Of a stretch of DNA of 64,000 nt, positions 1 to 57,858 are shown one piece after another. The notes under the pieces are model-generated. The model was not told where the DNA came from. It saw only the letters and a program-made list of their open reading frames with translations, and did no database searches. The stretch lies in the NCBI GenBank assembly GCA_047967505.1, contig CM106538.1. One strand, 5' to 3'. The first letter of the stretch is position 1. Each line of letters starts with the position of its first letter. Both the position numbers and the translations under genes were made by a program. The DNA is from Dipteris shenzhenensis (Eukaryota).

Positions 1-3000
1 ATGGCAGTGATGCCAATCTCATGCAGGCACCTACATAATGACACTAAGATCAACAAACTCACATGTGGACACCATTCTCCTATGATCACTGGAATACCCC
101 ACCTAGAATAGTAGGGTAAACATTTGTACAAGTGGAGAATGGCAGGGTGCCGATCTATTATTAGGCCCTAGAAAATGGCATTGAGAAGCCTAAACTCACA
201 TGTGCATGCTTCTCAATGCCATTTTCTAGGGCCTAATAAGAGATTGGCACCACTGGAGAATGGATTTGTGTCAATCTTTGTGGAGAATGCCACCAGTGGA
301 GAATGACAGTGGTGCCAATCTCATACCAAGACCTTAAAAATGGCACAAGGAATCCTAAACTCACATGTGCATTGGCACTCTTGCCATTATACTACTGCAC
401 CCAATAAAATTTGTGGAATGTCAATCTACAAGTTTAGTTTATCTAGACTGCCACCAGTGGAGAATTGAACTGATGCCAATCACATGCAGGCAACTACATA
501 ATGACACTGAGATCCTCAGACTCACATGTGGATTGGAATCGGGCACCATTCTCCTATGATCCTTGGAATACCCCTCCTAGAATATTAGGGTAAAGATTTG
601 TACCAACGGAGAATGGCAGTGGTGCCAATCTCTTATTAGGCCCTAGAAAATGGCACTGTGAAGCCTAAACTCACATGTGCAACCAATAAAATTAGTGGAA
701 TGTCAATCTATAGGTTTTGTCTAGATTACCACTAGTGGAGAAGCCTAAACTCACATGTGCATTCTTCTATGTAGTGATCACTGTCTCCGCTGTGTACAAA
801 TGTTCACCACTCTCCTATGATCACTGGAATACCCCTCCTAGAATAGTAGGGTAAACATTTGTACAAGTGGAGAAAAGTGGTGCCAATCTCATACCATGAC
901 CTGAAAACATGCACAAGGAATCCTAAACTCACATGTGCATTGGCACTTTTGCCATTATCCTACTGCAGCCAATAAAATTAGTGGAATGTCAATCTATAGG
1001 TTCAGTTTGTCTAGATTACCACTAGCGGAGAATGGCAGTGGTGCCAATCTCTTATTACGCCCTAAGAAATGGCATTGAGAAGCCTAAACTCACATGTGCA
1101 TTCTTCTATGTAGTGATCACTCTCTCCGCTGTGTAGAGATCATATGGAATTGTGTCAATCTCTTATAAGGCAGTGGAATGTCAATCTATAGGTTTAGTTT
1201 GTCTAGACTACCACTAGTGGAGAATGGCAGTGATGCCAAACTCATGTTGGCACCTACATAATGACACTAAGATCATCAAACTCACATGTGGAATGGAATC
1301 GGACACCACTCTCCTATGATCACAGGAATACCCCTCCTAGAATAGTACGGTAAACATTTGTCATTGAGAAGCCTAAACTCACATGTGCATTCTTCTATGT
1401 AGTGATCACTGTCTCCGCTGTGCAGAGATCATATGGAATTGTGTCAATCTCTGTGGAGAATACCACCAGTGGAGAATGGTAGTGGTGCCAATCTCATACC
1501 ATGACCTGCAAACATGCACAAGGAATCCTAAACTCACATGTGCATTCTTCTATGTAGAGATCACTGTCTCCGCTGTGTAGAGATCATATGGAATTGTGTC
1601 AATCTCTGAGTTCATCAAACTCACATGTTGATTGGAATCGGACACCACTCTCCTATGATCACTGGAATACCCCTCCTAGAATAGTAGGGTCAACATTTGT
1701 ACAAGTGGAGAATGGCAGTGGTGCCAATCTCTTATTAGGCCCTAAGAAATGGGAAGCCTAAACTCACATGTGCATTCTTCTATGTAGTGATCACTGTCTC
1801 CACTGTGCAGAGATCATATGGAATTGTGTCAATCTCTGTGGAGAATGCCACCAGTGGAGAATGGCAGTGGTGCCAATCTCATACCATGACCTGATAACAT
1901 GCACAAGGAATCCTAAACTCACATGTGCATTGGCACTTTTGCCATTATAGAATGCCACCAGTGGAGAATGGCAATGTTGCACAAGGAATCCTAAACTCAC
2001 ATGTGCATTCTTCTATGTAGTGATCATTGTCTCCGCTGTGTAGAGATCATATGGAATTGTGTCAATCTCTGAGTTCATCAAACTCACATGTGGATTGGAA
2101 TCGGACACCACTTTCCTATGATCACTGGAATACCCCTCCTAGAATAATAGGGTGAACATTTGTACAATTGGAGAATGGCAGTGGTGCCAATCTCTTATTA
2201 GGCCCTAAGAAATGTCATTGAGAAGCCTAAACTCACATGTGCATTCTTCTATGTAGTGATCACTATCTCCGCTGTGCAGAGATCATATGGAATTGTGTCA
2301 ATCTCTGTGGAGAATGCCACCAGTGGAGAATGGCAGTGGTTCCAATCTCATACCATGACCTGATAACATGCACAAGGAATCCTAAACTCACATGTGCATT
2401 CTTCTATGTAGAGATCACTGTCTCCGCTGTGTAGAGATCATATGGAATTGTGTCAATCTCTGAGTTCATCAAACTCACATGTGGATTGGAATCGGACACC
2501 ACTCTCCTATGATCACTGGAATACCCCTCCTAGAATAGTAGGGTGAACATTTGTACAAGTGGAGAATGACAGTGGTGCCAATCTCTTATTAGGCCCTAAG
2601 AAATATCATTGAGAAGCCTAAACTCACATGTGCATTCTTCTATGTAGTGATCATTGTCTCCGCTGTGTAGAGATCATATGGAATTGTGTCAATCTCTTAT
2701 TAGGCCCTAGAATGTCAATCTATAGGTTTAGTTTGTCTAGACTACCACTAATGGAGAATGGCAGTGATGCCAAACTCATGCTGGCACCTACATAATGACA
2801 CTGAGTTCGTCAAACTCACATGTGGATTGGAATCGGACACCACTCTCCTATGATCACTGGAATACCCCTCCTAGAATAGTAGGGTAAACATTTGTACAAG
2901 TGGAGAATGGAAGTGGTGCCATTCTCTTATTAGGCCCTAAGAACTGGCATTGAGAAGCCTAAACTCACATGTGCATTCTTCTATGTAGTAATCACTGTCT

Positions 3001-6000
3001 CCGCTGTGCAGAGATCATATGGAATTGTGTCAATCTCTGTGGAGAATGCCACCAGTGGAGAATGGCAGTGGTGCCAATCTCATACCATGACCTGAAAACA
3101 TGCACAAGGAATGTCTAGATTACCACTAGCGGAGAATGGCAGTGATGCCAATCTCATGATGGCAACTACATAATGACACTGAGATCATCAAACTCACATG
3201 TGGAATGGAATAGGACACAACTCTCCTATGATCACTTGAATAACCCTCCTAGAATAGAAGGGTCAACATTTGTACAAGTGGTGCCAATCTCTTATTAGGC
3301 CCTAAGAAATGTCATTGAGAAGCCTAAACGCACATGTGCAGGGATCATATGGAATTGTGTCAATCTCTGTGGAGAATGCCACCAGTGGAGAATGGCAGTG
3401 GTGCCAATCTCACACCATGACCTGAAAACATGCACAAGGAATCCTAAACTCACATGTGCATTCTTCTATGTAGTGATCACTGTCTCCGTTGTGTAGAGAT
3501 CATATGGAATTGTGTCAATCTCTTATTAGGCCCTGGAATGTCAATCTATAGGTTTAGTTTGTCTAGACTAGCACTAGTGGAGAATGGCAGTGATGCCAAA
3601 CTCATGCTGGCACCTACATAATGACACTGAGATCATCAAACTCACACGTGGAATGGAATCGGACACCACTCTCCTATGATCACAGGAATACCCCTCCTAG
3701 AATAGTAGGGTAAACATTTGTCATTGAGAAGCCTAAACTCACATGTGCATACTTCTATGTAGTGATCACTATCTTCGCTGTGTAGAGATCATATGGAATT
3801 GTGTCAATCTCTGTGGAGAATGCCACCAGTGGAGAATGGTAGTGGTGCCAATCTCATACCATGACCTGCAAACATGCACAAGGAATCCTAATCCCACATG
3901 TGCATTCTTCTATGGAATACCCCTCCTAGAATAGTAGGGTGAACATTTGTACAAGTGGAGAATGGCAGTGGTGCCAATCTCTTATTAGGCCCTAAGAAAT
4001 GGCATTGAGAAGCCTAAACTCACATGTGCATTCTTCTATGTAGTGATCACTGTCTCCGCTTTGTAGAGATCATATGGAATTGTGTCAATCTCTGTGGAGA
4101 ATGCCACCAGTGGAGAATGGCAGTGGTGCCAATCTCATACCATGACCTGAAAACATGCACAAGGAATCCTAAACTCACATGTGCATTGGCACTTTTGCCA
4201 TTATCCTACTGCAGCCAATAAAATTAGTGGAATGTCAATCTATAGGTTCAGTTTGTCTAGATTACCACTAGCCGAGAATGGCAGTGATGCCAATGGCAAC
4301 TACATAAAGACACTGAGATAATCAAACTCACATGTGGAATGGAATAGGACACCACTCTCCTATGATCACTTGAATAACCCTCCTAGAATAGTAGGGTAAA
4401 CATTTGTACAAGTGGTGCCAATCTCTTATTAGGCCCGAAGAAATGGCATTGAGAAGCCTAAACTCACATGTGCAGAGATCATATGGAATTGTGTCGATCT
4501 CTGTGGAGAATGCCACCAGTGGAGAATGGCAGTGGTGCCAATCTCATACCATGACCTGAAAACATGCACAAGGAATCCTAAACTCACATGTGCATTCTTC
4601 TATGTAGTGATCACTGTCTCCGCTGTGTAGAGATCATATGGAATCCTAAACTCACATGTAGAAGGAGGGAAATTGTGTCAATCTCTGAGATCATCAAACT
4701 CACATGTGGATTGGAATCGGACACCACTCTCCTATGATCACTGGAATACCCCTCCTAGAATAGTAGGTGAACATTTGTACAAGTGGAGAATGGTAGTGGT
4801 GCCAATTATTAGGCCCTAAGAAATGGCATTGAGAAGCCTAAACTCACATGTGCATTCTTCTGTGTAGTGATCACTGTCTCCGCTGTGCAGAGATCATATG
4901 GAATTGTGTCAATCTCTGTGGAGAATGCCACCAGTGGAGAATGGCAGTGGTGCCAATCTCATACCATGACCTGATAACATGCACAAGGAATCCTAAACTC
5001 ACATGTGCATTGGCACTTTTGCCATTATAGAATGCCACCAGTGGAGAATGGCAGTGATGCACAAGGAATCCTAAACTCACATGTGCATTCTTCTATGTAG
5101 TGATCACTGTCTCCGCTGTGTAGAGATCATATGGAATTGTGTCAATCTCTGAGTTCATCAAACTCACATGTGGATTGGAATCGGAAACCACTCTCCTATG
5201 ATCACTGGAATACCCCTCCTAGAATAGTAGGGTGAACATTTGTACAAGTGGAGAATGGCAGTGGTGCCAATCTCTTATTAGGCCCTAAGAAATGGCATTG
5301 AGAAGCGTAAACTCACATGTGCATTCTTCTATGTAGTGATCACTGTCTCCGCTATGTAGAGATCATATGGAATTGTGTTAATCTCTGTGGAGAATGCCAT
5401 GAGTGGAGAATGGCAGTGGTGCCAATCTCATACCATGACCTAAAAACATGCACAAGGAATCCTAAACTCACATGTGCATTGGCACTTTTGCCATTATCCT
5501 ACTGGAGCCAATAAAATTAGTGGAATGTCAATCTATAGGTTCAGTTTGTCTAGACTACCACTAGCGGAGAATGGCAGTGATGCCAACATGCTTGCAACTA
5601 CATAATGACACTGAGATCATCAAACTCACATGTGGAATGGAATAGGACACCACTCTCCTATGATCACTGGAATACCCCTCCTAGGATAGTAGGGTAAACA
5701 TTTGTACAAGTGGAGAATGGTAGTGGTGCCAATCTCTTATAAGGCCCTAAGAAACGGCATTGAGAAGCCTAAACTCACATGTGCAGAGATCATATGGAAT
5801 TGTGTCAATCTCTGTGGAGAATGCCACCAGTGGAGAATGGCAGTGGTGCCAATCTCATACCATGACCTTAAAACAGCACAAGGAATCCTAAACTCACATG
5901 TGGAATGGAATAGGACACCACTCTCCTATGATCACTTGAATAACCCTCCTAGAATAGTAGGGTAAACATTTGTACAAGTGGTGCCAATCTCTTATTAGGC

Positions 6001-9000
6001 CCTAAGAAATGGCATTGAGGAGCCTAAACTCACATGTGCAGAGATCATATGGAATTGTGCCAATCTCTGTGGAGAATGCCACCAGTGGAGAATGGCAGTG
6101 GTGCCAATCTCATACCATGACCTGAAAACATGCACAAGGAATCCTAAACTCACATGTGCATTCTTCTATGTAGTGATCACTATCTCCGCTATGTAGAGAT
6201 CATATAAAATTATGTCAATCTCTTATTAGGCCCTAGAATGTCAATCTATAGGTTTAGTTTGTCTAGACTACCACTAGTGGAGAATGGCAGTGATGCCAAA
6301 CTCATGCTGGCACCTACATAATGACACTGAGATCATCAAGCTCACATGTGGAATGGAATTGGACACCACTCTCCTATGATCACAGGAATACCCCTCCTAG
6401 AATAGTAGGGTAAACATTTGTCATTGAGAAGCCTAAACTCACATGTGCATTCTTCGATGTAGTGATCACTGTCTCCACTGTGTAGAGATCATATAGAATT
6501 GTGTCAATCTCTGTGGAGAATGCCACCACTGGAGAATGGTAGTGGTGCCAATCTCATACCATGACCTGCAAACATGCACAACGAATCCTAAACTCACATG
6601 TGCATTCTTCTATGGAATACCCCTCCTAGAATAGTAGGGTGAACATTTGTACAAGTGGAGAATGGCAGCGGTGCCAATCTCTTATTAGGCCCTAAGAAAT
6701 GGCATTGAGAAGCCTAAACTCACATGTGCATTCTTCTATGTAGTGATCACTGTCTCTGCTGTGCAGAGATCATATGGAATTGTGTCAATCTCTATGGAGA
6801 ATGCTACCAGTGGAGAATGGCAGTGGTGCCAATCTCATACCATGACCTGAAAACATGCACAAGGAATCTTAAACTCACATGTGCATTGGCACTTTTGCCA
6901 TTATCCTACTGCAGCCAATAAAATTAGTGGAATGTCAATCTATAGGTTCAGTTTGTCTAGATTACCACTAGCGGAGAATGGCAGTGATGCCAATCTCATG
7001 ATGGCAACTACATAATGACACTGAGATCATCAAACTCACATGTGGAATGGAATAGGACACCACTCTCCTATGATCACTTGAATAACCCTCCTAGAATAGT
7101 AGGGTAAACATTTGTACAAGTGGTGCCAATCTCTTATTAGGTTCGAAGAAATGGCATTGAGAAGCCTAAACTCACATGTGCAGAGATCATATGGAATTGT
7201 GTCGATCTCTGTGGAGAATGCCACCAGTGGAGAATGGCAGTGGTGCCAATCTCATACCATGACCTGAAAACATGCATAAGGAATCCTAAACTCACATGTG
7301 CATTCTTCTATGTAGTGATCACTATCTCCGTTGTGTAGAGATCATATGGAATTGTGTCAATCTCTATGGAGAATGCCACCAGTGGAGAATGGTAGTGGTG
7401 CCAATCTCATACCATGACCTGAAAACATGCACAAGGAATCCTAAACATGTCTCCGCTATGTAGACATCATATGGAATTGTGTCAATCTCTGTGGAGAATG
7501 CCACCAGTGGAGAATGGCAGTGGTGCCAATCTCATACCATGACCTGAAAACATGCACAAGGAATCCTAAACTCACATGTGCATTGGCAATTTTGCCATTA
7601 TCCTACTACCATTGTCTGCTAGTGGTAATGTGCATTCTTCTATGTAGTGATCACTGTCTCCGCTGTGTAGAGATCATATGGAATTGTGCCAATCGCTGTG
7701 GAGAATGCCACCAATGGAGAATGGTAGTGGTGCCAATCTCATACCATGATCTGCAAACATGCACGAGGAATCCTAAACTCACATGTGCATTCTTCAATGT
7801 AGAGATCATTGTCTCCGCTGTGTAGAGATCATATGGAATTGTGTCAATCTCTGAGTTCATCAAACTCACATGTGGATTGGAATCGGACACCACTCTCCTA
7901 TGATCATTGGAATACCCCTCCTAGAATAGTAGGGTGAACATTTGTACAAGTGGAGAATGGCAGTGGTGCCAATCTCTTATTAGGCCCTAAGAAATGGCAT
8001 TGAGAAGCCTAAACTCACATGTGCATTCTTCTTTGTAGTGATCACTGTCTCCATTGTGTAGAGATCATATGGAATTGTGTCAATCTCTTATTAGGCCCTG
8101 GAATGTCAATCTATAGGTTTCGTTTGTCTAGACTACCACTAGTGGAGAATGGCAGTGCTGCCAAAGTCATGCTGGCACCTACATAATGACACTGAGTTCA
8201 TCAAACTCACATGTGGATTGGAATCGGACACCACTCTCCTATGATCACTGGAATACCCCTCCTAGAATAGTAGGGTAAACATTTGTACAAGAGAATGGTA
8301 GTGGTGCCAATCTCTTATTAAGCCCTAAGAAATGGAAATGAGAAGCCTAAACTCACATGTGCATTCTTCTATGTAGTGATCACTATCTCCGCTGTGTAGA
8401 GATCATATGGAATTGTGTCAATCTCTGTGGAGAATGCCACTAGTGGAGAATGGCAGTGGTGCCAATCTCATACCATGACCTGAAAACATGCACAAGGAAT
8501 CATAAACTCACATGTGGATTAGCACTTTTGCCATTATAGAATGCCACCAATGGACAATGCAGTGGTGCACAAGGAATCCTAAGCTCACATGTGCATTCTT
8601 TTATGTAGTGATCACTGTCTCCGCTGTGTAGAGATCATATGGAATTGTGTCAATCTCTGAGATCATCAAACTCACATGTGGATTGTAATCGGACTTGTAA
8701 TCGGACACCACTCTCCTATGATCACTGGAATACCCCTCCTAGAATAGTAGGGTAAACATTTGTACAAGTGGAGAATGGCAGTGGTGCCAATCTCTTATTA
8801 GGCCTTAAGAAATGTCATTGAGAAGCCTAAACTCACATGTGCAGAGACCATATGGAATTGTGTCAATCTCTGTGGAGAATGCCACCAGTGGAGAATGGTA
8901 GTGGTTCCAATCTCACCTAATGACCTGAAAACATGCACAAGGAATCCTAAACTCACATGTGCATTGGCACTTTTGCCATTATTCTATTGCCATTCTCCGC

Positions 9001-11950
9001 TAGTGGTAATATGCATTCTTCTATGTAGTGATCACTCTCTCCACTGTGTAGAGATCATATGGATTTGTGTCAATCTCTGTGGAGAATGCCACCAGTGGAG
9101 AATGGCAGTGGTGCCATTCTCATACCATGACTTGAAAACATGCACAAGGAATCCTAAACTCACATGTGCATTGGCACTTTTGCAATTATCCTACTGCCAT
9201 TCTCCGCCGCTAGTGCTAATGTGCATTCTTCTATGTAGTGATCACTGTCTCCGCTGTGTAGAGATCATATGGATTTGTGTCAATCTCTATGGAGAATGCC
9301 ACCAGTGCAGAATGGCAGTGGTGCCAATTTCATACCATGATCTGAAAACATGTACAAGGAATCCTAAACTCACATGTGCATTGGCACTTTTGCCATTATC
9401 CTATTGCCATTGTCCGCTAGTGGTAATATGCATTCTTCTATGTAGTGATCACAGTCTCTGATGTGTAGATATCATATGGAATTGTGTCAATCTCTGTGGA
9501 GAATGGCAGTTGTGCCAATCTCATACCATGACCTGAAAACATGCACAAGGAATCCTAAACTCACATGTGCATTGGCACTCTTGCCATTATCCTACTGCAG
9601 CCAATAAAATTAGTGGAATGTGAATCTATAGGTTTAATTTGTCTAGATTACCACTAGCGGAGAATGGCAGTGATTGCCAATCTCATGCTTGCCCTAAGAA
9701 ATGGCATTGAGAATCCTAAACTCACATGTGCATTCTTCTATGTAGTGATCATTGTCTTCGCTGTGTAGAGATCATATGGAATTGTGTCAATCTCTTATTA
9801 GGCCAATCTCTTATTAGGAGAATGGCAGTGGTGCCAATCTCATACCATGACCTGAAAACATGCACAAGGAATTGTAAACTCACATGTGCATTGGCACTTT
9901 TGCCATTATCCTACTACCATTCTCCGCTAGTGGTAATGTGCATTCTTCTATGTAGTGATCACTGTCTCCGCTGTGTAGAGATCATATGGATTTGTGTCAA
10001 TCTCTATGGAGAATGCCACCAGTGGAGAATGGCAGTGGTGCCAATCTCATACTAGGACCTGAAAACATGCACAAGGAATCCCAAACTCACATGTGCATTG
10101 GCACTTTTGCCATTATCCTACTGCCATTCTCCGCTAGTGGTAATGTGCATTCTTCTATGTAGTGATAACTGTCTCTGCTGTGTAGAGATCATATGGAATT
10201 GTGTCAATCTCTGTGGAGAATGCCACCAGTGGAGAATGGTAGTGGTGCCAATCTCATACCATGACCTGAAAACATGCACAAGGAATCCTAAACTCAGATG
10301 TGGATTGGCACTTTTGCCATTATAGAATGCCACCAGTGGAGAATGGCAGTGGTGCACAAGGAATCCTAAACTCACATGTGCATTCTTCTATGTAGTGATC
10401 ACTGTCTCCGCTATGTAGAGATCATATGGAATTATGTCAATCTCTGAGATCATCAAACTCACATGTGGATTGGAATCGGACACCACTCTCCTATGATCAC
10501 TAGAATACCCCTTCTAGAATAGTAGGATAAACATTTGTACAAGTGGAGAATGGTAGTGGTGCCAATCTCTTATTAGGCCATAAGAAATGTCATTGAGAAG
10601 CCTAAACTCACATGGCCAATAAAATTAATGGAATGTCAATCTATAGGTTCAGTTTGTCTAGATTACCACTATTGGAGAATGGCAGTGATGCCAATCTCAT
10701 GCTGTCTAGACTACCACTAGTGTTAGGCCTAAGAAATTGCATTGAGAAGCCTAAACTCACATGTGCATTCTTCTATGTAGTGATCACTATCTCCGCTGTG
10801 CAGAGATCATATGGATTTGTGTCAATCTTTGTCGAGAATGCCACCGGTGGAGAATGGTAGTGGTGCCAATCTCATACCATGACCTGAAAACATGCACATC
10901 CTAAACCCACATGTGCATTGGCACTTTTGCCATTATCCTACTGCAGCCAATAAAATTAGTGGAATGTCAATCTATCGATTTAGTTTGTCTAGATTACCAC
11001 TAGTAGAGAATGGCAGTGATGCCAAACTCATGCTGGCCCTAAGAAATGGCATTGAGAATCCTAAACTCATGTGTGCATTCTTGTAGAGACTACCACTAGT
11101 GGGGAATGGCAGTGATGTCAATCTCATGCTGGCAACTATATAATGACATTGAGATCATCAAACTCACATTTGGACACCACTCTCCTATGATCACTGGAAT
11201 ACCCCTCTTAGAATAGTAGGGTAAACATTTGTACAAGTGGAGAATGGCAGGGGTGCCAATCTCTTATTAGGCCCTAAATAAATGGCATTGAGAAGCCTAA
11301 ACTCACATGTGCATTCTTCTATGTAGTGATCACTGTCGCCGCTGTGTAGATATCATATGGAATTGTGTCAATCTCTGTGGAGAATGGCAGTGGTGCCAAT
11401 CTCATAGCATGACCTGAAAACATGCACAAGGAATTCTAAACTCACATGTGCATTGCCACTTTTGCCATTATCCTACTGCAGCCAATAAAATTAGTGGAAT
11501 GTCTAGACTACCACTAGTGGAGAATGGTAGTGATGCCAATCTCATGCTAGAACCTACGTAATCACACTGAGATCATCAAACTCACATGTGGATTGGTAGG
11601 ACACCACTCTACTAGAATACCCCTCCTAGAATAGTAGGATAAACATTTGTACAAGTGGAGAATGGCAGTGGTGCCAGTCTCTTATTAGGCCCTAGAAAAT
11701 GGCATTGAGAAGCCTAAACTCACATGTGCATTCTTATTAGCATCAGTGCCCTTCTCTAGAAGGTCAGGTGAGAAAACTCTCATGTGATAACCTTCACATA
11801 AGGAGAATGGCACTGGTGCCATTCTCTGATTCTCTGCAATCCATGTAATGAATCGAACTTCTGCCATTCTCCTTAACATCATGGAGGATGGCACCAGTGG
11901 CATTATCCTGAAACTCTCACGGAGGATGGCACTTGTGCCATTGTGAACAA
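1..11950. repeat. Complex satellite-like array; ancestral ~465-bp trimer of ~155/161/149-bp monomers, heavily shuffled, open at window start
   Basis: Recurrent boxes GGAGAATGGCAGTGGTGCCAATCTC and AAACTCACATGTG throughout; near-complete trimers at ~5250-5711 and ~6657-7120; copies decay toward 11,700-12,030. Confidence 0.97.
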
Positions 11951-12239
11951 ACTCACAATCCATGTGTTCAATGGCATTTGTGACACTCTTCTAACATCAT
12001 ATTATGTTGGAGAATGGCACGAATACCATTCTTTATTATAACCATCTTAACTTTGATATTGTGTATATTTGCTTACTGTGTTGGTGTAGTTTTTCATAAT
12101 GCATATATAAGTTGCTTCGCCTTGGTTATTTTGTTAATAGAAGTTGCATTGTGGTTGTAATATTTCCTACTACAGTTATGATTTTCTATTATACATTTCA
12201 TTGTGTCCTTGGTTCTTTTGTTAACAGAACATTGCAAGA

Positions 12240-15200
12240 ATGGCTAGCAAGGGAAAGAGAAAGGTTCGAGAGGTGTCAGTTTATGATGGAGTTAGTTCTG
12301 GAAGGGGATGGTTTTTGGATATATACAATAACGAACTCCAAAAACTCCATAAAGTGCATTGTTTTGTGAACATCCAAGGAAAAACTTTTGAAGATGTTGG
12401 ACAAGTTAAAGAGATGGGGGATACCGAGAAAGACAACGTTCCTTGTCTCAAAATTCATACATTGGGAGGCAATGTGTATCAATTGGATCCTGCTTGTTTT
12501 GATCATGCGAGGATGAATGCTACTGGGGAGGACACGATGATATCTAGGGGTTGGATTAATGAGCCAGAAAATTATACCAACCGACAGATATTAGAAAGCT
12601 TTGATTTGGTAACAAAAGGGATAAAGCAAGATATAAAAAAGAGTAGAAACGTTTCGAAAAGAACCAAGAAAAGTGATGTTGAGGGATCAAGCTCTCAAGT
12701 GTCTCAGAACACATTGAAAGAGAAGGCTAGAGAGACCGGTGAGGAGGAAACAATAGGTGAGAAGGAAATAAGGTCAGATGGAAAAACAAGCATTGGGGAT
12801 AAACTGGAGGCTAAAGATAAAGAGACAACTTTAGGAGGAAAACAGGGAGGTATGGGAATAGTCACTGATGGAACTGGAAGTGGAGGTGATGCAACGGGGA
12901 GTGGTGAGACACATATAATAGGACATGGTGAGAAATCATATGAAGCAACTATCATCCTGTATGAGAAAATCCAGCCAGATGTTGACTTTAAGGCACTACA
13001 AAAGAAATTGGAAAGGAAGGACACAAGTATGACAGGCTTGATGGAGTACGTAGAGTACTTCCCATTTGGTTTGGAGTTTGAGGTGTTGATCCCAGTGATG
13101 AATTGCTTTAGAGCACCAAGCCAATATGTGTACAGGACATCGACCCTCAGCTATGTCAGTGACTTGGTCAAGAGTTTTGCAATGAATGCACGACCTCCTG
13201 CAACATGTGCATATCTTATGCCTTACCACATAGGCACAAATACTCCGATGTGCAAGGAAGAGATAAAGGTGGAAAAGTTAAAGGAGTATAATTATTGGAT
13301 TCTCGCAGGGCAGCATTCGATTTATGCTACAAGGATGTTTATAACTAAAGCACATGGTGAAGCCTTCAATCAATGAAAAGGTTTCTATACACGGAGGAAG
13401 GCGAGAATTGTTGTCAATGCACCAGTTGAAGCAAGTTGTAAGATATCATCAATGGCCAACATGGAGGCACAGACCGTTTTGAAAAATCAACCATATATCG
13501 ATATCTTACAACACCTAAGGGCGCAGTGGATTGCATTCGGCGGATGACCAAAGAAACCAGCCCAAGGCCTTGTCAAAGGGCATAAAGATCGACAAATTTG
13601 GGATGTGAGTAATAAACTTTGCTTTGTATGCATTTTTTATTTCAAGAATGTTTATGGCTTTGTAAAAGAAATGATAGTAGTGTCAATTCCCTGATGTGAG
13701 AATGGCACTAGTGCCATTCTTCTAGTTACCAAGTCATGCTTTTGACATGGTAATGGGAGAATCGCACTAGTGTCATTATTATCTCTATTACATGATTTGG
13801 ATTAGAAGAATGTCTAAGATGATTTTGATTTTTTTATATAGAATTTTGTAGGAGTTGCAAGCGTATCGATGGGCGCAAACTTTGCTACCAAGGACACACA
13901 CATGGCCACATATGATGATGACATCTATGAACAATGGATTAGGATTTTGACATTGGTGAAGCAGGGTGATCTTGAGGGTCGAAATCCCACAATAACATAT
14001 ATGAGGTGTCTGCTAGGATTGGAAGATGAAGATGTACGTGCACTTCAAGCAGAGATTGAGTCTAAAGAAATAGTCTTGGTCAAGTCAAGCAAAGACAAGG
14101 ACTCCATTGAAATGTCTCAATGGGCAATGGAGATTAAGCATGATAGAGCCCTGAAAGAAGCACTCATCAAGGAGTTCAACTCACGTCACCCTTCGCCCCA
14201 ACATCAAACATGGGATGCCCTTGCAACTTACTTCAAAATTGATTCAATTGTTTATCAGAGCTTCAAGGGTTCATGTGAGTCATGGGTCAAAGAGAAGCTA
14301 CAAGTTGGCAAGTCCACACCTGATTTCCCAAAAGCTGCATCAATCTATGTTGATTGGGTGATTAGTTCAATAGAGGGTAACAAGTCTACATCGCAGTCTT
14401 GTTTTCCTTAGACAATTATTCAAGTGAACATGGAGATGGAGGGGGAGAGCTTTCTAACACGTCACTCTAAGGGACAACTTTCAATCAGCTTGTGTGTGCT
14501 TGACACCTCAGAGGGATCTACCAAAGGCATGTGTTGGGATAAGGATGCCTTCAAGAAGTTGCTTTGTGGCTTGATGGAGACCGTTGCCACTCCATCACAG
14601 TATGTATTGCTATCATTTATGACAATGATAGAGATGGTAAATCTCAAGGAAGCAATGATAGAGGCTCGATTTTGGCATAGAAGGTTTGTGGGTGTTATTT
14701 ATGAATCGGATAGTGCACAAAAGGGTTTGTCTGAGACCTTCTGTTTTTTGTCATTTGTGAGCTCACATGATGGGTTTGATGGGATTTGAGCACATGTTAG
14801 AAAACACAAGGCCATACACAATAATTGAGGACAATATTCTTTATTCTGATGAGGATGATGAGTATGAAAAAGAGGCCGTTGTGAAGCATGGCATCATCAA
14901 GGAGTGCATCAGGTGCTATTGTAGTAGGGAACATGAAGTTTTTGTTGACGTCTTTACTAATGGATGTGTGGCATTACAAGCATTGTCAAGCAAAAGAAAA
15001 GTGATCTCACTAGTGAAGACATCCCAACAGGCGACAGAGGTCGAGGCTATGTGTGTGGCACATGCATCAAATAATCCCCATATTAAGATTTGGTCTAGCA
15101 TTGAGAGGCCTCTTGAGACGCATAGAGCTGATTCACCTATCGATGAAGGAATTAAAGAGGGTGAGCATCACATTAAAGACTTGCGACCTTTAACTGAAGC

Positions 15201-15255
15201 AGATCTTGAAGCTATCCCAAAGATTACATTGGAAGATTTGGAGCAAGGTCTTTAG
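12240..15255 (+). pseudogene. Spliced gene with ParB/Srx-like domain (exon 12240-13604) and degenerate beta-class amino-methyltransferase-like domain (exon 13842-~15247); disrupted
   Basis: Frame continues through TGA 13374-76 and TGA 13545-47 to donor GTGAGT at 13605; acceptor AG 13840-41 rejoins in phase 0; in-frame TAG 14409-11; +1 frameshift near 14780. Motifs YWILAGQHSIYA, SLCVLDTSEG..WD, EHEVFVDVFTNG..ALQALSSKRKVI. Confidence 0.7.
13605..13841 (+). other. GT-AG intron carrying copies of the array palindrome
   Basis: GAT|GTGAGT donor, T-rich tract and TAG|AAT acceptor restore the frame (WD|NFVG); perfect 22-bp palindrome AGAATGGCACTAGTGCCATTCT at 13699-13720. Confidence 0.8.
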
Positions 15256-15384
15256 CTACTCATTTATGCCTTGTGTATTCAGTTTCAAAATAATATGACT
15301 TTTATGGATTTTCTCGATTGCACATACTCTCATTATATTAAAGAGATTAAACATTAGGTATGATAAAATTGTGTGACATAATGA

Positions 15385-15910
15385 CATGGGGAATGGTACT
15401 AGTGTCATTGTCCCTATGTCGGGTTATACGTAAGAGGTACTATTAACATTTTATGTGACTTCATATGGAGAATGGCACTAGTGCCATTCTCTCTTTGTGG
15501 TTATGTAGAAATGGTAATACTGTTATGTTCCTTTCTTGAATCTATGTTAGTTGAAAGCATTACAGAGATTAAAAATTGTATAGTATTAACTATGCTACCA
15601 AAGTTTTGATTTGGGTGCTTTCTACAAATCTATTGGACCAAAGTAATACAGTATCTATGCTTTCAGATCATGCATTGTACATTTCTTTTGGGACATGGGG
15701 GGAGGCACTAGTAGTATTCTCTCCTCCTAATGAGGGTATAGAGAAAGGCACTAGTGGCATTCTCCATAACCTTATATGTAAAATGGCACTAGCACCACCC
15801 CAAGAGAAGAATGGCACTATTGCCATTCTCTCTATGAGTTCAGAGAGAAAGGTTGCACTATTTGCATTCTCAATTGACTTTAGAGAGATTGGCACCAGTG
15901 CCATTCCCCA
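15385..15910. repeat. Cluster of about eight degenerate copies of palindrome GAGAATGGCACTAGTGCCATTCTC
   Basis: Perfect 24-bp copy at 15468-15491; variants near 15389, 15700, 15742, 15781, 15806, 15853, 15885. Confidence 0.85.
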
Positions 15911-16075
15911 AAAAGACAATGGAATCAGTGAACGGCGATGGATAATGTCCGTACTTTATTTTTATTTATTAGTTTCATAAGCTTTTGTGCTTCGACATTG
16001 TTGAATACACTCTAAAGAATCAAAATATTTCTATATTCCTCAACTTCCATAGGGACCAATGATGCATGGAAGGAT

Positions 16076-17338
16076 ATGGAGACATCAAATGTAGAGGACA
16101 ACATACCACCCAAAATGGGGACTATCAATTACACGATGGATACAAGAGGTATAGAAGAAAACATAACCCCAAAAATGGAGAAAATTGCAAGGAATATCAC
16201 GAATCCTATACTTTTAGAAGAGAACATGGATGAACGTACTGTCTCAACATTGGGGACAAGACTAGATAATCTTATTGTTGTTGCAAACATGTATGAAATC
16301 ATAGCACCTGACAATTTGGATGAGTCAGAAGCCAGCAACTTCAAGGAGAATTTGGATCTATATCCACATACAATTTCTTTGGATATGCCACGATTAACAA
16401 TCATATTAGACTTGAATGGCCTGTTATTAAGTCGCTGCCTATTCAAGTCTCTAATACATCTGTCTATTATGCACGGCAAAAATAGTTATATGGTTGTTCG
16501 TCCTGGGTGCATAGAATTTCTTAAAATCTTGCTACAAAGATTTAATGTAGGTATTTGGTCAACTACGATGGAGTATAACGTACTTGATATCGTAGGAAAG
16601 CTACAAAATTATGCAAATGAGAGCCTCCCTTTCTTTGTTATATGGTCTCAGCAAGGATGCTACACTTACAGTAAGACGAGGATAAATAGGCCTGACAAGG
16701 TTGGTGTTGAGGCAATGTTCAAACCCTTAGCAAAAATCTCAAAGGAATTTGGATGTGATGCTAGAAGGACAATCCTTGTTGATGACTCCCCATACAAGGC
16801 TTGCATTAGCCCTCCATCAAATTGCATATTTCCTTCAACATTTGATGTACAAGACAAGGATGATAATATTCTACTGAGAGAGTTGATGCCGTACTTACTA
16901 CAACTCGATGAGACTAAAGATGTGCACAGCATGATTGAGACAAATCGGTATGGACAATTACCTGTGATGGAGGGGCATAAGGATTTCAACCTTGTCCACC
17001 AAGTAATTGATGAATGGAGGGAGGCAAATCATGCATGGTCAAGAATGGAATATAAAACAAGAAATCTTCCTCTTGTAGATCAACTAAGAGAGAGGGATAT
17101 AGGTGGTAATATAGAACCAAAGGGTGTACACCCTAAGACAACCCATGGTGGTGATGGCCAGGTGCTTAAACTCAATGCATCCCAAATAAGGCTTTTAAGG
17201 AATGCTCCGCAACTCTCTAGCATGAATGCTATGCAAGTTTCTCAATTGGCTATAGACCTAGGGTACAAAGGTCGCTATATCAAGAAATACATTGCTAAGG
17301 GCTACATAAACCGACTACAGAATGCGTATTTTTCATGA
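16076..17338 (+). CDS. FCP1/SCP-like (NIF) HAD-superfamily phosphatase domain protein; probably an internal exon starting at 16053
   Basis: Intact 420-aa ORF with TIILDLNGLL (motif I variant), VRPGCIEFL, FNVGIWS, MFKPL, TILVDDSPYK; acceptor TTCCATAG ends at 16052. Confidence 0.85.
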   Translation: METSNVEDNIPPKMGTINYTMDTRGIEENITPKMEKIARNITNPILLEENMDERTVSTLGTRLDNLIVVANMYEIIAPDNLDESEASNFKENLDLYPHTISLDMPRLTIILDLNGLLLSRCLFKSLIHLSIMHGKNSYMVVRPGCIEFLKILLQRFNVGIWSTTMEYNVLDIVGKLQNYANESLPFFVIWSQQGCYTYSKTRINRPDKVGVEAMFKPLAKISKEFGCDARRTILVDDSPYKACISPPSNCIFPSTFDVQDKDDNILLRELMPYLLQLDETKDVHSMIETNRYGQLPVMEGHKDFNLVHQVIDEWREANHAWSRMEYKTRNLPLVDQLRERDIGGNIEPKGVHPKTTHGGDGQVLKLNASQIRLLRNAPQLSSMNAMQVSQLAIDLGYKGRYIKKYIAKGYINRLQNAYFS

Positions 17339-17398
17339 AGGTACATATGTCAAAGTGTTTTTTGATTTTATCTCAAGTCTATATAACTGTTGTTGCAG

Positions 17399-17962
17399 CT
17401 AATTGAATTTGTCTTTTGTGATGTAGATAGATATACGTTCAAATCAAGCTTGAGTAGGTACATACCAGAACGAGATCCATTTGGACCACCAAAGTTACCT
17501 GTCCCTATCAACGAAGTGTTCTGGATAAAAAATGTGGCTTTCGAGGTGCATGAGTCAACCATTACAGGTGCTGGCTTGGGCTTGTTTGTGCATGGCTCCA
17601 TAAAGAGAGGGACTACTATTCTCCATTATGGAGGTGACAAGTACTCCTACAGAGACTGGAAGGAATTATGTAGAGTTCATCCAAGGCTAAAGAAGTACTC
17701 TATCCAAGAGGACCCCACTGTCCCTATGAAGAATACGGTGCATATTGTTGGTGATGTTCAATATGGCAATGTGGTAGGATTTATTAACAGCAATAGAAAT
17801 ACCAATGTAAAGCCAAATGTTTGTTATGTATTTTCCCCTGATGTTCCACCTTGGTATGACCCCATGATGAACATAGATATTGCAGAATATGGTCACATTT
17901 GTATTGAATCCATAGATGATATACATGCAGGAGAGGAGCTATTTGCAGACTATGAGTTTTGA
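17399..17962 (+). CDS. Minimal SET-domain lysine methyltransferase-like exon
   Basis: ESTITGAGLGLF, ILHYGG, GFINS..PNV, DIHAGEELFADY; no Cys-rich pre/post-SET; ORF-track start is TTG, but a TTGCAG acceptor ends at 17398. Confidence 0.85.
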   Translation, partial: LIEFVFCDVDRYTFKSSLSRYIPERDPFGPPKLPVPINEVFWIKNVAFEVHESTITGAGLGLFVHGSIKRGTTILHYGGDKYSYRDWKELCRVHPRLKKYSIQEDPTVPMKNTVHIVGDVQYGNVVGFINSNRNTNVKPNVCYVFSPDVPPWYDPMMNIDIAEYGHICIESIDDIHAGEELFADYEF

Positions 17963-18469: not shown

Positions 18470-19242
18470 AGCCTGTGCGTTTTCATTGCAATACTCATGG
18501 TTTGTGGTCATTTGAATATTTGAAGCCTCCATTTGTGTGCAAGTTAAAGGACTGCTACAGGTGTTGCTGTGAATACCATGTGCAGATGTCCTTTCTGAAA
18601 GATGCATTGAACTTGATGCGCAATTAGTATAGCCTTTTGATCATCATCCTCAATAATGGCACCAACTCATTGAAGTTGTTTCAAGAGCACCTGCATACAG
18701 TTCAGAAAGGTTCCCAGATCTTCATTGTCATTCATATGGAGGTTGTAAAGTTGCTGCTTGAGATTTGCTTTGGAATGACACATTTTTGTTTCGAATAGTG
18801 CCTCTAGAATTGCCCAATTTGCTACTGCTGACTTTGTAATCTCAAGATGGTGGAAGTACTCTCCTAGGGCTCATCCCATCATGCCAATTGCTTTATCATT
18901 ATTTTTCTTCCACGATCGTTTCTCTACTTCACCGGTGGTCGGCTCCTTCTCTATTCTAGACACAATCTCCCACAAGCCCTTTTGCATAAACCATAATTTT
19001 GCTGACAGCTGCCCTCAAAGTTTCAGCCAGTAAATCTGACGACGGACGTCTCTGCCTGAGAACACACAGTAGCTAGAACTTCTAAGGGAACTTTTGACCA
19101 AGGATGTATTTTGCTCCTTGGCCTCTTGGTCTTCCACACCAACACATGCCCACCGTTGATATCAAGACTGCCTAAGCTAAATCTTCTAATCTTGCTCATG
19201 AATTCTTCTTCTCTGAATCTTCACAACCACGCTCTGATACCA
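18470..19242 (-). mobile_element. Ty1/copia gag remnant with tRNA-Met PBS
   Basis: PBS TGGTATCAGAGC on minus strand at 19231-19242; minus translation includes MQKGLWEIVS..WKKKNDKAIGMM (copia gag-like). Confidence 0.7.
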
Positions 19243-23260: not shown

Positions 23261-23673
23261 GCACATGAAATCTTTAACACACCATTAGGCACCAGTGTTG
23301 AATCAATCCTCCACATCCATAGCATTATTTTATAAGAAAAGGGAGGAACCATATTTTGTACTTAAAATGCCATGCTATGGTATCGTGTGTGTGTCTAAAA
23401 GTATTGGTTTGAGGATGGTATAGGTTCAACTAGATAGCCTTGTGGGATAAGGAACCATGATGGCTTGCTGGTCATATTTTGGGAGCATAAAATGTCATAG
23501 ATAGACATTCATTTGAGGTAAACTCAAGCATATAGAAACAACTATCATAGTTTGGTTGGATTTCTGTAGCTAGCCTTGTGGGATGAGGAACCATGATGAC
23601 TTGCTAGTCATATTTTGGCAGCATAAAATGTCATAGGTAGATGTTCATTTGAGGTTAGCTCAAGCATATAGAA
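23261..23673 (+). repeat. Dispersed ~410-bp repeat with internal ~118-bp tandem units; inverted copy at ~58647-59060
   Basis: GCACATGAAATCTTT..CACCATTAGGCACCAGTGTTGAATCAAT matches the reverse complement of the sequence ending at 59060. Confidence 0.9.
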
Positions 23674-23679
23674 ATAAAT

Positions 23680-24856: not shown

Positions 24857-27546
24857 CAAATAGGGGGGGAGAGAATATGTCAACAGAGTTTGATGCAATT
24901 TTTATCTTCACGGGGCATTGTTCACTCATGCACTACTCCTTACACTCCTCAGCATAATCCTGTTCCTGAAAGGAAGAATAGGTCCACTATGGAGATGGCC
25001 AGATGCATGCTTAAGGCCAAGTCCTTGCCCAATAAATTTTAGCTTGATGCAGTAATGTGTGCCAACTATGTGCTGAATAGATCACCTACAAGGGCATTGA
25101 AGACTGTTACACCTTATGAAGCATGGAAAGGCAGGAAGCCTTCACTTTCACACATGAGAGTTTTTGGGTCTCTTGCATATGTTCATGTACCATCTCAGTT
25201 GAGACATAAGCTTGATGACAAAGCAATCAAATGCATATTGATTGGTTACAGCTAGGAGAGCAGAGGACATAGGTTATACCAACCAAATACTGGGAAGATT
25301 CTTGTCAGTAGAGATATAATCTTTTCTGAACATTCGGCTTCTCCTCTTGTGGACTGCAAAGCTAAGCCATAAGTTGACATGTTTGATGCCTTTGACTCTT
25401 GGTTACCTCTACCTTCCTCAGAGGGGGACTTTGACCAGCAACATGAGCCTCCTGCAGGCCCTCCAACAAGCAATGATCAGCCAATACCCCATGCTGATTT
25501 GCAGGTTTCTCTTCCAGCACAAAATGATCCCACTATTCATGATGTAGTGATTGAAGAAAGAGCTGTCAATAGACAGCAAAGGCAAGTTCTCAGATGGCTT
25601 CTTGATACATTGAGAGATAGCAAACAAGATCAGCCCTTTGCTACCTGGACAAGATTAGGGAATAGAGAGATGCATGGTCACTTTCTTGAGTTTGCACAGC
25701 TGGCAATAAAGAGCCTTTGTGCCATAAAGATGCTTTTGACAGCAAAGAGTGGATGGACACAATGAGAGCTGAGATACAATCCATTGCCAAAAGTGACACA
25801 TGGGAATTAGTAGATCTCCCTCCCGACAAGCATGCCATTGGTACTCAGTGGGTCTACAAATTAAAAAGGAAATCTGATGGCAGTATAGATCGAGACACAA
25901 AGCCCGTCTTTTTGCAAAAGGGTATGCCCAACAACAAGGCATTGACTTTGAGGAGACATTTTCTCCCACATCTAGGATTACTACTATTAGATGTGTCATT
26001 GCCATTGTACCCCATCATCATTGGCAAGTGCACCAGCTTGACATCAAGACTGCTTTTCTTCATGGGGATCTGCAAGAAGAAGTTTATGTGACACAACCTC
26101 CTGGCTTTGAGGTTGTTAATTCTGAAAACAAGGTACGCCGGATTAGAAAAGCCCTTTATGGTTTGAAGCAGGCACCCAAAGCATGGTATGCCAAAATTCA
26201 TGCACACTTACTATCCCTTGGTTTTAGGAATAGTCCCACAGAGCCTCTTTATGTCTGTGGGAGTGGATCTGATTTTTTAGTGCTGATTTTATCTGTGGAT
26301 GATATGCTAATCATGGGCCCAGATACTCAGCATATTGCAGCTCTCAATGCTGATTTGCAACAGGCTTTTGAAATGTCAGACATGGGACAACTACACTATT
26401 ATTTGGACATTCAGTTTGCTCACATTGAGGGGGGTATCATGATGTCACAGTCCAAGTATATTGGACAGCTCCTTGATCGTTTTTAGTTTGAGGATTGCAA
26501 GCCAATATCTACATTAGTGGACCCTGGCTTCTCAGCTGAGCAGGTTCATGCACATGCCCAGTTCACAACATTGGCAAGCAGTGAAGAGAGTCTTCAGATA
26601 TCTCCGAGGCACTCTGGATTTAGCCCTCTTCTATGGTGATCAGAGTTCACTTACCATGCATGCTTACACGGATAGTGACTGGGCAAGTTGTTCCGACACC
26701 AGAGTGTCACCTCTTGGCTCAGCAAGAAGCAACCAACAGTTGCCACATCTAGCTGTGAGGTTGAGTACAAGGCAGCCTTCACTGCTACAATAGAGTGTGT
26801 CTAGCTTCGACAGCTACTTATAGATCTTGGTATTGGCCAGACATCCTCCACTATGGTCTACACTGACAGCCAGAGTGCTTTGGCCATTGTGTGTAACCCA
26901 GTGTTTCATGCGCATACCAAGCACATTGAAGTTCACTATCGTTATGTTTGAGAGCAATTGTCAGTAGGAGACATAGAGTTGTCCTACCTTCCCATAGAGG
27001 ACAACATAGCAGAAATGTTTACAAAGGCACTTCCTTGACCCAAGTTCAAAGTCTTCCGACAGGCTTTACACTTGGTTCCCTTTGTTACATGATCTGACAT
27101 ACCTTGTACATTCATAGGTGGCTATATCCTTTTGGATGAACATGTGCCACCATGACCATAAAATACTAGGTATTCTGAGACGTTTCCAGAATACTTCAGC
27201 CCATCCCATGGAGGGGGGTTTGTAGGCCATCTTCTCCAAGTTCTAGTGATGCCCTATGGGCCCTGGTATGTGCCTTGTAGGCATAGTTATAGGCACTCTA
27301 GTGTTTTAGTGCCTTTTATGCCACATAGGACACTTAGTCCTATGTGACACCTAGGACACTTAGTCCTAGGGTCTACCTTCAAGTACTATGTACTTTTCTT
27401 TTCATCTTATTTAGTTGACGTGACTGCTGATATCCATGACTCTTGAATCTTGTGCTTGCTCTCTCGTTTATCGATCCTTCAGCCTTTGCCTGCCTTAAAA
27501 AGGCCAGATATCATGTTGGTGTAAGTCACTATATCCAACTATTACA
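24857..27546 (+). mobile_element. Degraded Ty1/copia 3' half: integrase C-terminus, RT, RNase H, PPT and probable 3' LTR (27221-27546)
   Basis: TPYTPQHNPVPERKNR, HQLDIKTAFLHGDLQEEVY, KALYGLKQAPKAW, SVDD, AYTDSDWA, TKHIEVHY; PPT GGAGGGGGG 27210-27218 then TGTAGG. Confidence 0.92.
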
Positions 27547-56836: not shown

Positions 56837-57815
56837 GCAGAGAGAATTGAAGTGCATCTGAAGTGTTTTGGGGATTGTGCGTGGGGATAATGTGTAGGTG
56901 GCGAGTTGTGTAGAGACCTCCCTGACTCTTGTTGCTCCCTGTTTTCCAGTGGTCATGTCCTCTAATGAAATCTGCTTCCCTGCCTGGAGGATCTCCTGCT
57001 GAAGTTCCTGTAACTTCTTGATGTGGTCCTGCATCGATGAAGACTTCTTGGGATCCAACAACCGCATCTGGACCTCCAAGGAGACCCTCTTCGGTTCAAT
57101 TATACATGGACACTAAATGCACCCATATACTTTTGACCGCTGACATGTGCTTTACGTGATTAATCACCTTAGGAGTATAGTTAAGAAATATGAATTATCT
57201 TACCCTTGCATTGGCATGGTCCCACAGCTAGGACAGAGTCTCTGCCTCCTTCTGAGCCAGGGTGCCAAGGTCCTTTGCAAGGGGATCTGGTCGGGCAACA
57301 CCAATCAAGATGAAATCTGTTAAATCATATGACTGTAACACAAACTCCATCATCACCCACTAGACGTCGTAATTGAGCCCACACAACTATCGATCAACTG
57401 GGAAGATGGGCAACACTAGAATTTTTGTCTTATTCTCTACCATCTTGGACAAAGTTGCCATGTCGGAGTGAAGAGGTGACCTGAAAGAGAAGGTGGATGG
57501 GATAGAATGGGACTGAGGGTTGAAGAAAGGAGAGGGCTGAAGAAGAGGATGAACGGGCTGGCAGCCCAATGTACCTTCACACCTCGCTTTCCGTCCCTTG
57601 GGAACACCTCTTCTCTGATTTGAAAACACCCTTCAAAGTCACCCTTCGCTAGTCACCTGAACATTCTACTCCTCGAACATGTTTCTCCTCAAAGACACCT
57701 CTGAACAACACCCTATTCCTCCTCTCAATGTGTTGGCTCAACACTCCCTTCGCTCCTCGCGTCTCAAGCCAACCATGGCTTTGATATCATGTGAGAAATG
57801 CAATGGAAATGAATG

Positions 57816-57858
<43 letters not shown>

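Follow-up and report, generated by a model that had tools for sequence, protein, structure and literature searches.

A probable pseudo-enzyme with a beta-class DNA methyltransferase fold in a multi-domain protein family of ferns

A 64,000-nucleotide stretch of contig CM106538.1 from Dipteris shenzhenensis (assembly GCA_047967505.1), referred to here as the window, raises the question of whether a eukaryotic gene can carry a DNA methyltransferase domain of bacterial type that no longer methylates. An earlier note, made from the sequence alone, had proposed that positions 14412-15070 encode a degenerate beta-class N4C/N6A DNA methyltransferase fold in which the DPPY tetrapeptide is replaced by DTSE and the glycine loop is lost, and which would probably be catalytically dead. 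We describe evidence that 14412-15108 encodes a domain with the beta-class (circularly permuted Rossmann) fold in a multi-domain protein of a fern family, that the domain is most likely a pseudo-enzyme with phage-type ancestry, and that the copy in the window is a pseudogene; we put the probability of this reading at roughly 0.8.

The peptides on which the proposal was built are present where they had been placed: LSISLCVLDTSEGSTKGMCWDKD in a frame-0 open reading frame (ORF) at 14412-14789 (125 aa), which also contains LSISLCVLDTSEG...WD, and IKECIRCYCSREHEVFVDVFTNGCVALQALSSKRKVISLV in a +1 ORF at 14761-15255 (164 aa). A frameshift between the two had been assumed, and it is real, because contigs of two public sequencing runs (X1 and X3, see below) lack exactly one base of a GGG run at this position. 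Stepping over the extra G (a four-letter step, GGGA) joins the two ORFs into an open domain of 280 aa, P0276. We also weighed a 44-nt GT..AG interval (14757-14800) as an intron that would make the frameshift unnecessary, and rejected it, since it gives the wrong frame, is too short, and the other copies are simply one base shorter.

This domain does not stand alone. One reading frame that starts with the ATG at 12240 spans it, broken by TGA codons at 13374 and 13545, a GT..AG interval at 13605-13841, a TAG at 14409 and the +1 shift near 14781. By tblastn, residues 1-1297 of P0126, a fern protein of 1300 aa, line up in order along the window, the matching segments being 12240-13502 and 13845-14777 in frame 0, 14848-15102 in frame +1 and 16019-17329 in frame +2. 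The methyltransferase-like domain thus forms the central part of a single long gene, which spans 12240-17338 on the plus strand. From the N-terminus the protein is composed of a beta-rich part, a ParB/Srx fold, a helical domain, the methyltransferase-like domain, an acidic linker and an NIF phosphatase-like domain.

An exhaustive phmmer search of 1.84 billion representative proteins with the read-through of 12240-14786 identified 121 proteins with E<=1e-3, of which 70 have E<=1e-10 and 18 have E<=1e-30; the stretch is therefore coding-derived and not a chance likeness. Ten relatives were looked up: five representatives, and one more cluster member, are entered as 'hypothetical protein [Adiantum nelumboides]', and the other five derive from Logan or ENA contigs. 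Full-length relatives (1100-1440 aa) were added by a profile search, in which A. nelumboides accounts for 21 of the 25 matches; NIF is carried by 12 of these 25, and one cluster at 90% identity has 29 members. The family is diverse and many-copy, and its named members are exclusively fern (A. nelumboides) proteins, with no paralogue of the gene inside the window. It emerged from the exhaustive search only: a word-indexed homologue search with ORF 14761-15255 among proteins of near length gave 27 candidates, none of which scored. Three relatives (P0013, P0063 and P0101) are chimeric with retroelement or hAT pieces (RT_RNaseH_2, SH3_Tf2-1 and Dimer_Tnp_hAT), which suggests that copies often adjoin transposons and are mis-joined by gene predictors. 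No account of a fern or plant family combining ParB-like, methyltransferase-like and NIF domains turned up in the literature searches.

The fold of the methyltransferase-like domain was predicted with AlphaFold2 for P0005, a homologue of 468 aa, from an alignment with 22 rows, giving a model with a mean predicted local distance difference test score (pLDDT) of 81.0, a predicted template modelling score (pTM) of 0.71, and 223 residues at pLDDT >=90. Its first half consists of a strand (179-183), a helix (186-197) and a strand (204-210) ending in an invariant Asp, followed by a helix, a strand and a helix; the middle contains a hairpin of strands 269-279 and 289-299 and then a short low-confidence segment; and the last part runs through a helix (335-354), a strand (360-364, VIDVF), a helix, a strand (381-385) and a helix. 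This is the beta-class order, in which the motif IV-VIII half of the Rossmann-like sheet stands ahead of the half with motifs X and I-III. P0276 residues 2-232 align with residues 181-416 of P0005 at 31% identity over 237 residues with 7 gaps (E 9e-37), so that the fold can be transferred to the window. There, a strand-helix-strand unit ends in the Asp of 'LCVLD-TSE' (DTSE, 14502-14513) at the place of motif IV, and further on come the helix KHGIIKECIRCYC, the strand 'VFVDVFTNG' (DVFTNG, 14947-14964, motif I-like) and 'KVISLV'.

Structural comparisons agree on what this fold is. Foldseek matched the P0005 model to 42 PDB entries at E<=1e-3, headed by CcrM (1.5e-6), M1.HpyAVI, TTHA0409, the rotifer N4CMT, M.PvuII, M.RsrI, M.MboIIA and M.BceJIV. 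VIA-align of the top 20 entries gave Z-scores of 12.0-14.6 with 176-218 residues aligned, covering about residues 175-412 of the model, at root-mean-square deviations (rmsd) of 3.2-4.4 except for 7dsu (8.7); every one of these entries is a beta-class DNA methyltransferase or a Type III Mod subunit, and MT-A70 proteins are next at Z 9-10. A search independent of Foldseek, over 48,161 representative PDB chains, placed beta-class enzymes at ranks 1-11 (Z 12.1-14.3) and MT-A70-type proteins at ranks 12-20 (Z 7.6-9.8), with all other chains at Z<=6.6. A Rossmann methyltransferase fold with beta-class DNA N6A/N4C methyltransferases as its best matches is thus what the earlier note had foreseen, and neither another fold nor an unrelated family appears in its place.

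Sequence comparison adds a second, fainter signal. A directed profile comparison (hhalign) with E. coli YhdJ, a PF01555 enzyme from NC_000913.3, paired the family stretch 'kKk..I...I..fC.Ed..VvDvFS.G.v..eAL..kRkvI.L' with the motif X/I/II stretch of YhdJ, with P 0.0046 against YhdJ alone and 4.2e-4 against 108 YhdJ orthologues. The search with YhdJ gave close relatives only (68% identity or more), and the methyltransferase profile is therefore shallow. The assignment of motif I thus agrees with the earlier mapping, by its position on the motif X/I region of YhdJ, while that of motif IV is of lower confidence, a permissive extension of the alignment putting the family's 'LD-x-T-x' on the 'ADPPY' of YhdJ. 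Among the ESM Atlas look-alikes of ORF 14761-15255, PF01555 clusters alone carry a name; at 0.88 they are under the 0.9 level and hence a lead only.

To what extent, then, are the catalytic motifs retained? The sequence (D/N/S)PP(Y/F/W) is found in none of 25 family members, the leading Asp being kept in all 25 and followed by x-[T/A/other]-x (DTSE in the window). At the place of motif I, [DE]-h-[FY]-x-x-G is present in 24 of 24 members (DVFTNG in the window); it aligns with DPFAGSF of YhdJ and retains one loop glycine. As judged from these alignments, the family appears to have swapped (D/N/S)PP(Y/F/W) for D-x-[T/A]-x and cut the FxGxG loop to [FY]-x-x-G. Representatives of the subfamilies are only 15-25% identical in the domain, yet P178, W179, D210, G368 and L375 are present in 13 of 13 and D363 in 11 of 13. 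The absence of the tetrapeptide across the family argues that its loss is old and family-wide, rather than decay of the window copy, and that the domain stayed under constraint. The motif is therefore missing as the earlier note had it, but not through decay of this copy; no paralogue among the 25 keeps DPPY or SPPY; and the glycine loop said to be lost is reduced, its G being kept in 24 of 24.

The Pro-Pro-aromatic part of motif IV places the target amino group in amino-methyltransferases. Because it is required and is absent here, we infer that the domain is a pseudo-enzyme. METTL14, with EPPL in this position, is the textbook inactive case according to the available part of PMC10915109. With motif IV replaced throughout the family and the glycine loop reduced, methylation would have been lost and the domain kept for a non-catalytic task, which could be nucleic acid binding or holding the protein together, resembling METTL14 beside METTL3. 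The ancestor would be a ParB-N6_N4 methyltransferase fusion of a phage or bacterium, to which the NIF domain was presumably added. The order of ParB-like, helical and methyltransferase-like parts matches that of phage and bacterial fusions, and such a fusion is therefore the most likely ancestry.

The copy in the window has itself decayed. Contigs from three public runs (X1, X2 and X3) contain copies that are mostly 95-99% alike to the window, and they differ from it at each lesion. At 13374 X1 has C where the window has T, and at 13545 the same holds for X1 and X2, so that both TGA codons read CGA; at 14410 all three have G in place of A, changing TAG to TGG in a column where the family has a conserved Trp; and at 14781 X1 and X3 are one base shorter. 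All four lesions are private to the window copy. It counts as a pseudogene because near-identical copies in other runs lack both its three nonsense mutations and its 1-base insertion. Compared with X1, the window carries T/A in place of C/G at 38 sites and C/G in place of T/A at 17 (binomial p 0.006), an excess that is consistent with C-to-T decay of a silenced repeat.

The decay of this copy raises the possibility that the missing motifs are merely part of it, or of one subfamily, and that intact paralogues with DPPY or SPPY exist elsewhere. The window copy is demonstrably decayed (three stops, a frameshift and an excess of the C-to-T type) and the motif was inspected in 25 members only, but it is absent from all of these, which represent at least six subfamilies and include intact ORFs from assembled contigs, and none of the best-supported differences listed between the window and the other copies falls in DTSE or DVFTNG. 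We consider this explanation extremely unlikely. The opposite proposal is that the domain retains activity, as a methyltransferase or as another S-adenosylmethionine-dependent enzyme, through a non-canonical site; it is also unlikely. Such a site could be made of the invariant Asp, a Thr two residues on and a conserved Trp about 10 residues downstream, and the conservation of the Asp (25/25), of [DE]-h-[FY]-x-x-G (24/24), and of D210 and G368 (13/13) and D363 (11/13) at 15-25% identity is what selection on a pocket would be expected to produce. Against it stand the lack of the Pro-Pro-aromatic part in every one of the 25 members and of any methyltransferase profile match. Active enzymes also carry a conserved acidic residue where the strand following motif I ends; Glu occupies this position in just 6 of 23 family members, and the window has Lys.

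If the domain is a pseudo-enzyme, its source could alternatively be the eukaryotic MT-A70 group (METTL3/METTL14, MTA1/MTA9), in which case it might be the inactive partner of an MT-A70 enzyme. This group is the second-best structural match (Z 7.6-10.3), has the permuted topology in common and includes known inactive partners (METTL14, in the accessible part of PMC10915109). PF01555-type enzymes nonetheless score 2-5 Z units higher and take all of ranks 1-11, the named look-alikes in the Atlas are PF01555, and ParB-fold fusions typically involve phage N6_N4 enzymes, archaeal fusions of ParB with MT-A70 being known too (10.1101/2025.10.10.680097, available text). We regard an MT-A70 origin as very unlikely. 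The likelihood that the resemblance is due to chance or is a modelling artefact, with some other alpha/beta fold in reality, is close to negligible: identity to solved methyltransferases is 8-14%, the folding alignment has 22 rows and no Pfam profile matches, but the model is confident (223 residues at pLDDT >=90), a clean gap separates methyltransferases (Z>=7.6) from everything else (Z<=6.6) among the 48,161 chains, and the independent hhalign and Atlas signals name the same family.

Several observations weigh against our preferred interpretation of a beta-class pseudo-enzyme with phage-type ancestry. The sequence that was folded is that of the homologue P0005 and not the window's own. Pfam identified no methyltransferase, whether the query was the set of raw ORFs (E<=1), the read-through of 850 aa (E<=10) or the domain after frameshift correction (E<=10); the profile search with PF01555 that the earlier note had put forward as a check thus gave no match. 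PF01555 was likewise absent at E<=10 from all 22 family members searched, and at stricter cut-offs from 22 relatives and from 12 long ones. Neither the ORF nor the family profile recovered a methyltransferase from the PDB by sequence, the matches being of chance level (proteasome alpha-7, E 0.09), and 22 members searched against PHROGs gave nothing meaningful. The hhalign probability against the YhdJ orthologues is only 34%, and the register of motif IV is taken from its low-confidence extension together with the end of strand 204-210 in the model instead of a structural alignment at residue level. In view of the kept Asp and D-x-F-x-x-G, a cofactor or ligand pocket could survive, leaving inactivity as something we infer. 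The place of the target-recognition domain is short, has pLDDT of about 49-61 (P0005 residues 311-330) and is acidic in the window, which disfavours DNA binding by this domain. Because the target-recognition region is short, low in confidence and acidic, we lean towards a predicted role in assembly or dimerisation, or in co-operative binding with the helical and ParB-like parts, over sequence-specific reading of DNA by the methyltransferase-like domain alone.

The ParB-like part of the gene was examined in a model of the homologue P0007 (397 aa, 21 rows, pLDDT 74.7, pTM 0.47), which represents the N-terminal exon and is 32% identical to the window ORF. Residues of about 205-348 match the N-terminal nucleotide-binding domain of ParB, with M. 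xanthus ParB at Z 10.4 (rmsd 2.3, 95 residues aligned), followed by Caulobacter ParB (9.9), Noc (9.8), B. subtilis ParB (9.8), PadC and KorB (8.7) and sulfiredoxin (Srx, 6-6.7). The Foldseek E-values of these matches are weak (best 0.04, probability 0.99), and PF02195 (ParB) has no Pfam match in the raw ORFs or the relatives scanned. The ParB context suggested by the earlier note is thus supported by a predicted ParB-fold domain upstream in the same gene. An arginine-rich nucleotide-binding motif of GERR type is the ParB consensus; the near-invariant motif of the fern domain is G-Q-H-S..A. One relative has a weak DndB match (E 0.04), and the Atlas groups the ParB-like part of P0126 (residues 225-420) with DUF3723 (0.95) and ParB_N (0.90) clusters, which are leads only. 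When the P0005 model was compared with predicted viral structures (BFVD), the best matches included phage proteins of about 500 aa, one of them a 'ParB/Sulfiredoxin' protein matching over 456 columns of the 468-residue model, and N4/N6 methylases of phages and pandoraviruses were next in line. Residues 13-137 of P0007 (about 12280-12650 in the window) have a weak PH-like resemblance (Z about 5.5).

The NIF domain was identified directly by its Pfam profile (68.7 bits against a cut-off of 21.8) in ORF 16016-17338, and also in 8 of 12 long relatives; a match of this ORF to SCP1 (E 1.3e-4) aligns over the C-terminal part only. Active FCP1/SCP phosphatases carry the motif DxDx(T/V). Its putative counterpart at 16391-16420 reads ILDLNGLLL in the window, and LDLNG or LSLCG in the relatives, so that to judge by its sequence the NIF phosphatase-like domain may be non-catalytic too. 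Fifty nucleotides past the family gene, in the NIF frame with stops between, lies a SET-domain ORF (17387-17962, plus strand, 191 aa, Pfam E 2.3e-9). It may be a gene of its own or a captured piece, as SET is absent from the long relatives, which stop after the NIF tail.

Features of the gene are listed below. Many predicted relatives continue beyond 'W-D/E' into 'VS...', a read-through at the putative intron 1 donor, and an intron 1 acceptor at 13851 was dropped in favour of 13841, which preserves the frame. Contigs of the public runs include none joined across either putative intron.

Features of the methyltransferase-like gene in the window
Feature	Position	Strand	Basis
Exon 1: N-terminal beta-rich (PH-like?) part, low-complexity linker and ParB/Srx-fold domain 'YWILAGQHSIYA'	12240..13604	+	Collinear with P0126 residues 1-397; cut by TGA 13374-13376 and TGA 13545-13547
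Putative intron 1, GT..AG, 237 nt, frame-preserving, with 2 copies of the 24-nt palindrome	13605..13841	+	Read from sequence
Helical middle domain, closed by in-frame TAG 14409-14411 replacing a conserved Trp	13842..14411	+	ORF; aligns with P0005 residues 1-180, helical in the model
Beta-class methyltransferase-fold domain	14412..15108	+	Read-through P0276 aligned to the modelled P0005 domain
Frameshift, one extra G in a GGG run, frame 0 to +1	14781..14783	+	Base left out in X1 and X3 contigs
Acidic exon tail behind the methyltransferase-like domain; possible donor GT 15248 (candidate), stop 15253-15255	15109..15255	+	ORF 14761-15255; acidic linkers in the family here
Non-coding gap, probable intron 2, with 5 palindrome copies	15256..16015	+	Between 15102 and 16019 without family match
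NIF (FCP1/SCP-like) phosphatase-fold domain and conserved C-terminal tail, open 440-aa frame, end of the family protein	16016..17338	+	Pfam NIF E 6.2e-19; collinear with P0126 858-1297

The gene lies beside an irregular satellite that occupies 1-11.7 kb of the window. A 24-nt palindrome, GAGAATGGCACTAGTGCCATTCTC, occurs in 34 copies at <=3 mismatches where none is expected by chance; 28 of these are in the satellite, which they build up, the others being in the 5' flank of the gene, in intron 1 and in the gap at 15.3-15.9 kb, and none lies past 15.9 kb at that stringency. Its sites fall at 609-11681 (satellite), 11522-12033, 13698-13780, 15391-15908 and 18104. Looser copies are crowded in the 500 bp ahead of the ATG of the gene and are also found in both putative introns. 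A palindrome next to a gene with a ParB-like domain may be a candidate binding site, or simply a miniature inverted-repeat transposable element or satellite unit. A more elaborate proposal is that the ParB-, methyltransferase- and NIF-like modules have all lost their canonical catalytic motifs and form a site-specific DNA-binding system descended from a phage-type fusion, with GAGAATGGCACTAGTGCCATTCTC as its sites in a parS-like arrangement in a plant genome, so that the phosphatase-like arm could act on the transcription machinery or on chromatin at the palindrome repeats. We think this decidedly unlikely.

On reading, the ORFs at 18667-18870 (minus strand) and at 25373-26486, 32892-33518 and 51535-52083 (plus strand) resemble leftovers of retrotransposons (gag, reverse transcriptase and integrase) and a fragment of transposase type, which places the gene in a repeat-rich neighbourhood. 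Two inverted repeats of 401 nt (23277-23677 and 58644-59044), 96% complementary, 35 kb apart and with short arms alongside, may bound a large element or be copies of a single repeat. Direct repeats at 56837-58369 and 62488-64000 are 98-99% alike and about 5.6 kb apart, and nested inverted repeats of about 540 nt (97-99%), at 59908-60984 and 61405-62489, enclose duplicated ORFs.

For the window itself the outcome is an ordinary one, a single decayed copy among repeats, and the wider significance lies in the family. DNA amino-methyltransferases of the beta class belong to bacteria and phages. Few eukaryotic cases are known (rotifer N4CMT and Marchantia DN4MT1); they are active and have been noted as horizontally acquired epigenetic tools; here the beta-class fold is still joined to a ParB-like domain and has diversified into a many-copy fern family that sequence profiles do not see. 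If confirmed, it would provide a plant example of a long-lived methyltransferase pseudo-enzyme, the first domain annotation for dozens of 'hypothetical' fern proteins, and a test case for what becomes of ParB-methyltransferase fusions once catalysis is gone.

The nearest systems in architecture are the phage and bacterial ParB-N6_N4 fusions (PF02195 with PF01555), which like the fern family carry a ParB/Srx fold, a helical region and a beta-class methyltransferase fold in that order. Phages often carry fusions of this kind, of a ParB fold with an N6_N4 methyltransferase, according to the available text of a ParB survey preprint (10.1101/2025.10.10.680097), and in that text 'plant', 'fern' and 'fung' occur nowhere. 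Unlike these fusions, the fern family is eukaryotic, has putative introns, lacks DPPY and has GQHS at the place of the ParB arginine motif; it has also gained an NIF phosphatase-like domain and a beta-rich N-terminus, and has no sequence match to PF02195 or PF01555. The solved beta-class enzymes (TTHA0409, CcrM, M.RsrI, M.MboIIA, M1.HpyAVI, M.PvuII and M.BceJIV) have the permuted Rossmann topology of the fern domain (Z 12-14.6 over about 180-208 residues), but the fern domain differs from them in lacking (D/N/S)PP(Y/F/W), in its reduced glycine loop and in a very short target-recognition place, at 8-14% identity.

Among eukaryotic proteins, the bdelloid rotifer N4CMT and Marchantia DN4MT1 are beta-class enzymes of bacterial origin (PMC8885841, PMC10406627 and 10.1101/2021.02.12.428880, in their available parts). 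The rotifer enzyme resembles the fern domain as a PF01555-type fold in a eukaryote, and the structures match at Z 12.4-13.1; however, both enzymes are active in N4-methylcytosine formation and are recognised by PF01555, whereas the fern family has neither the catalytic motif nor a profile match and differs in its ParB-like and NIF architecture. DUF3723 (PF12520), a conserved cargo gene of the Starship transposons of fungi, is the nearest named Atlas look-alike of the ParB-like part of P0126 (0.95, a lead only), without a Pfam match in any family member scanned; it is said to resemble DNA-binding segregation genes (PMC9156397, available part), and like the fern family it consists of many-copy eukaryotic genes in repeat-rich DNA. 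METTL14 and MTA9, inactive partner proteins, provide a further parallel, with a methyltransferase fold (Z 8-10), a degenerate motif IV and a non-catalytic role such as substrate binding (PMC10915109, accessible part). They differ in being obligate partners of an active paralogue, where the fern family has no known active partner, and also in keeping Pro-Pro and in belonging to the MT-A70 clade.

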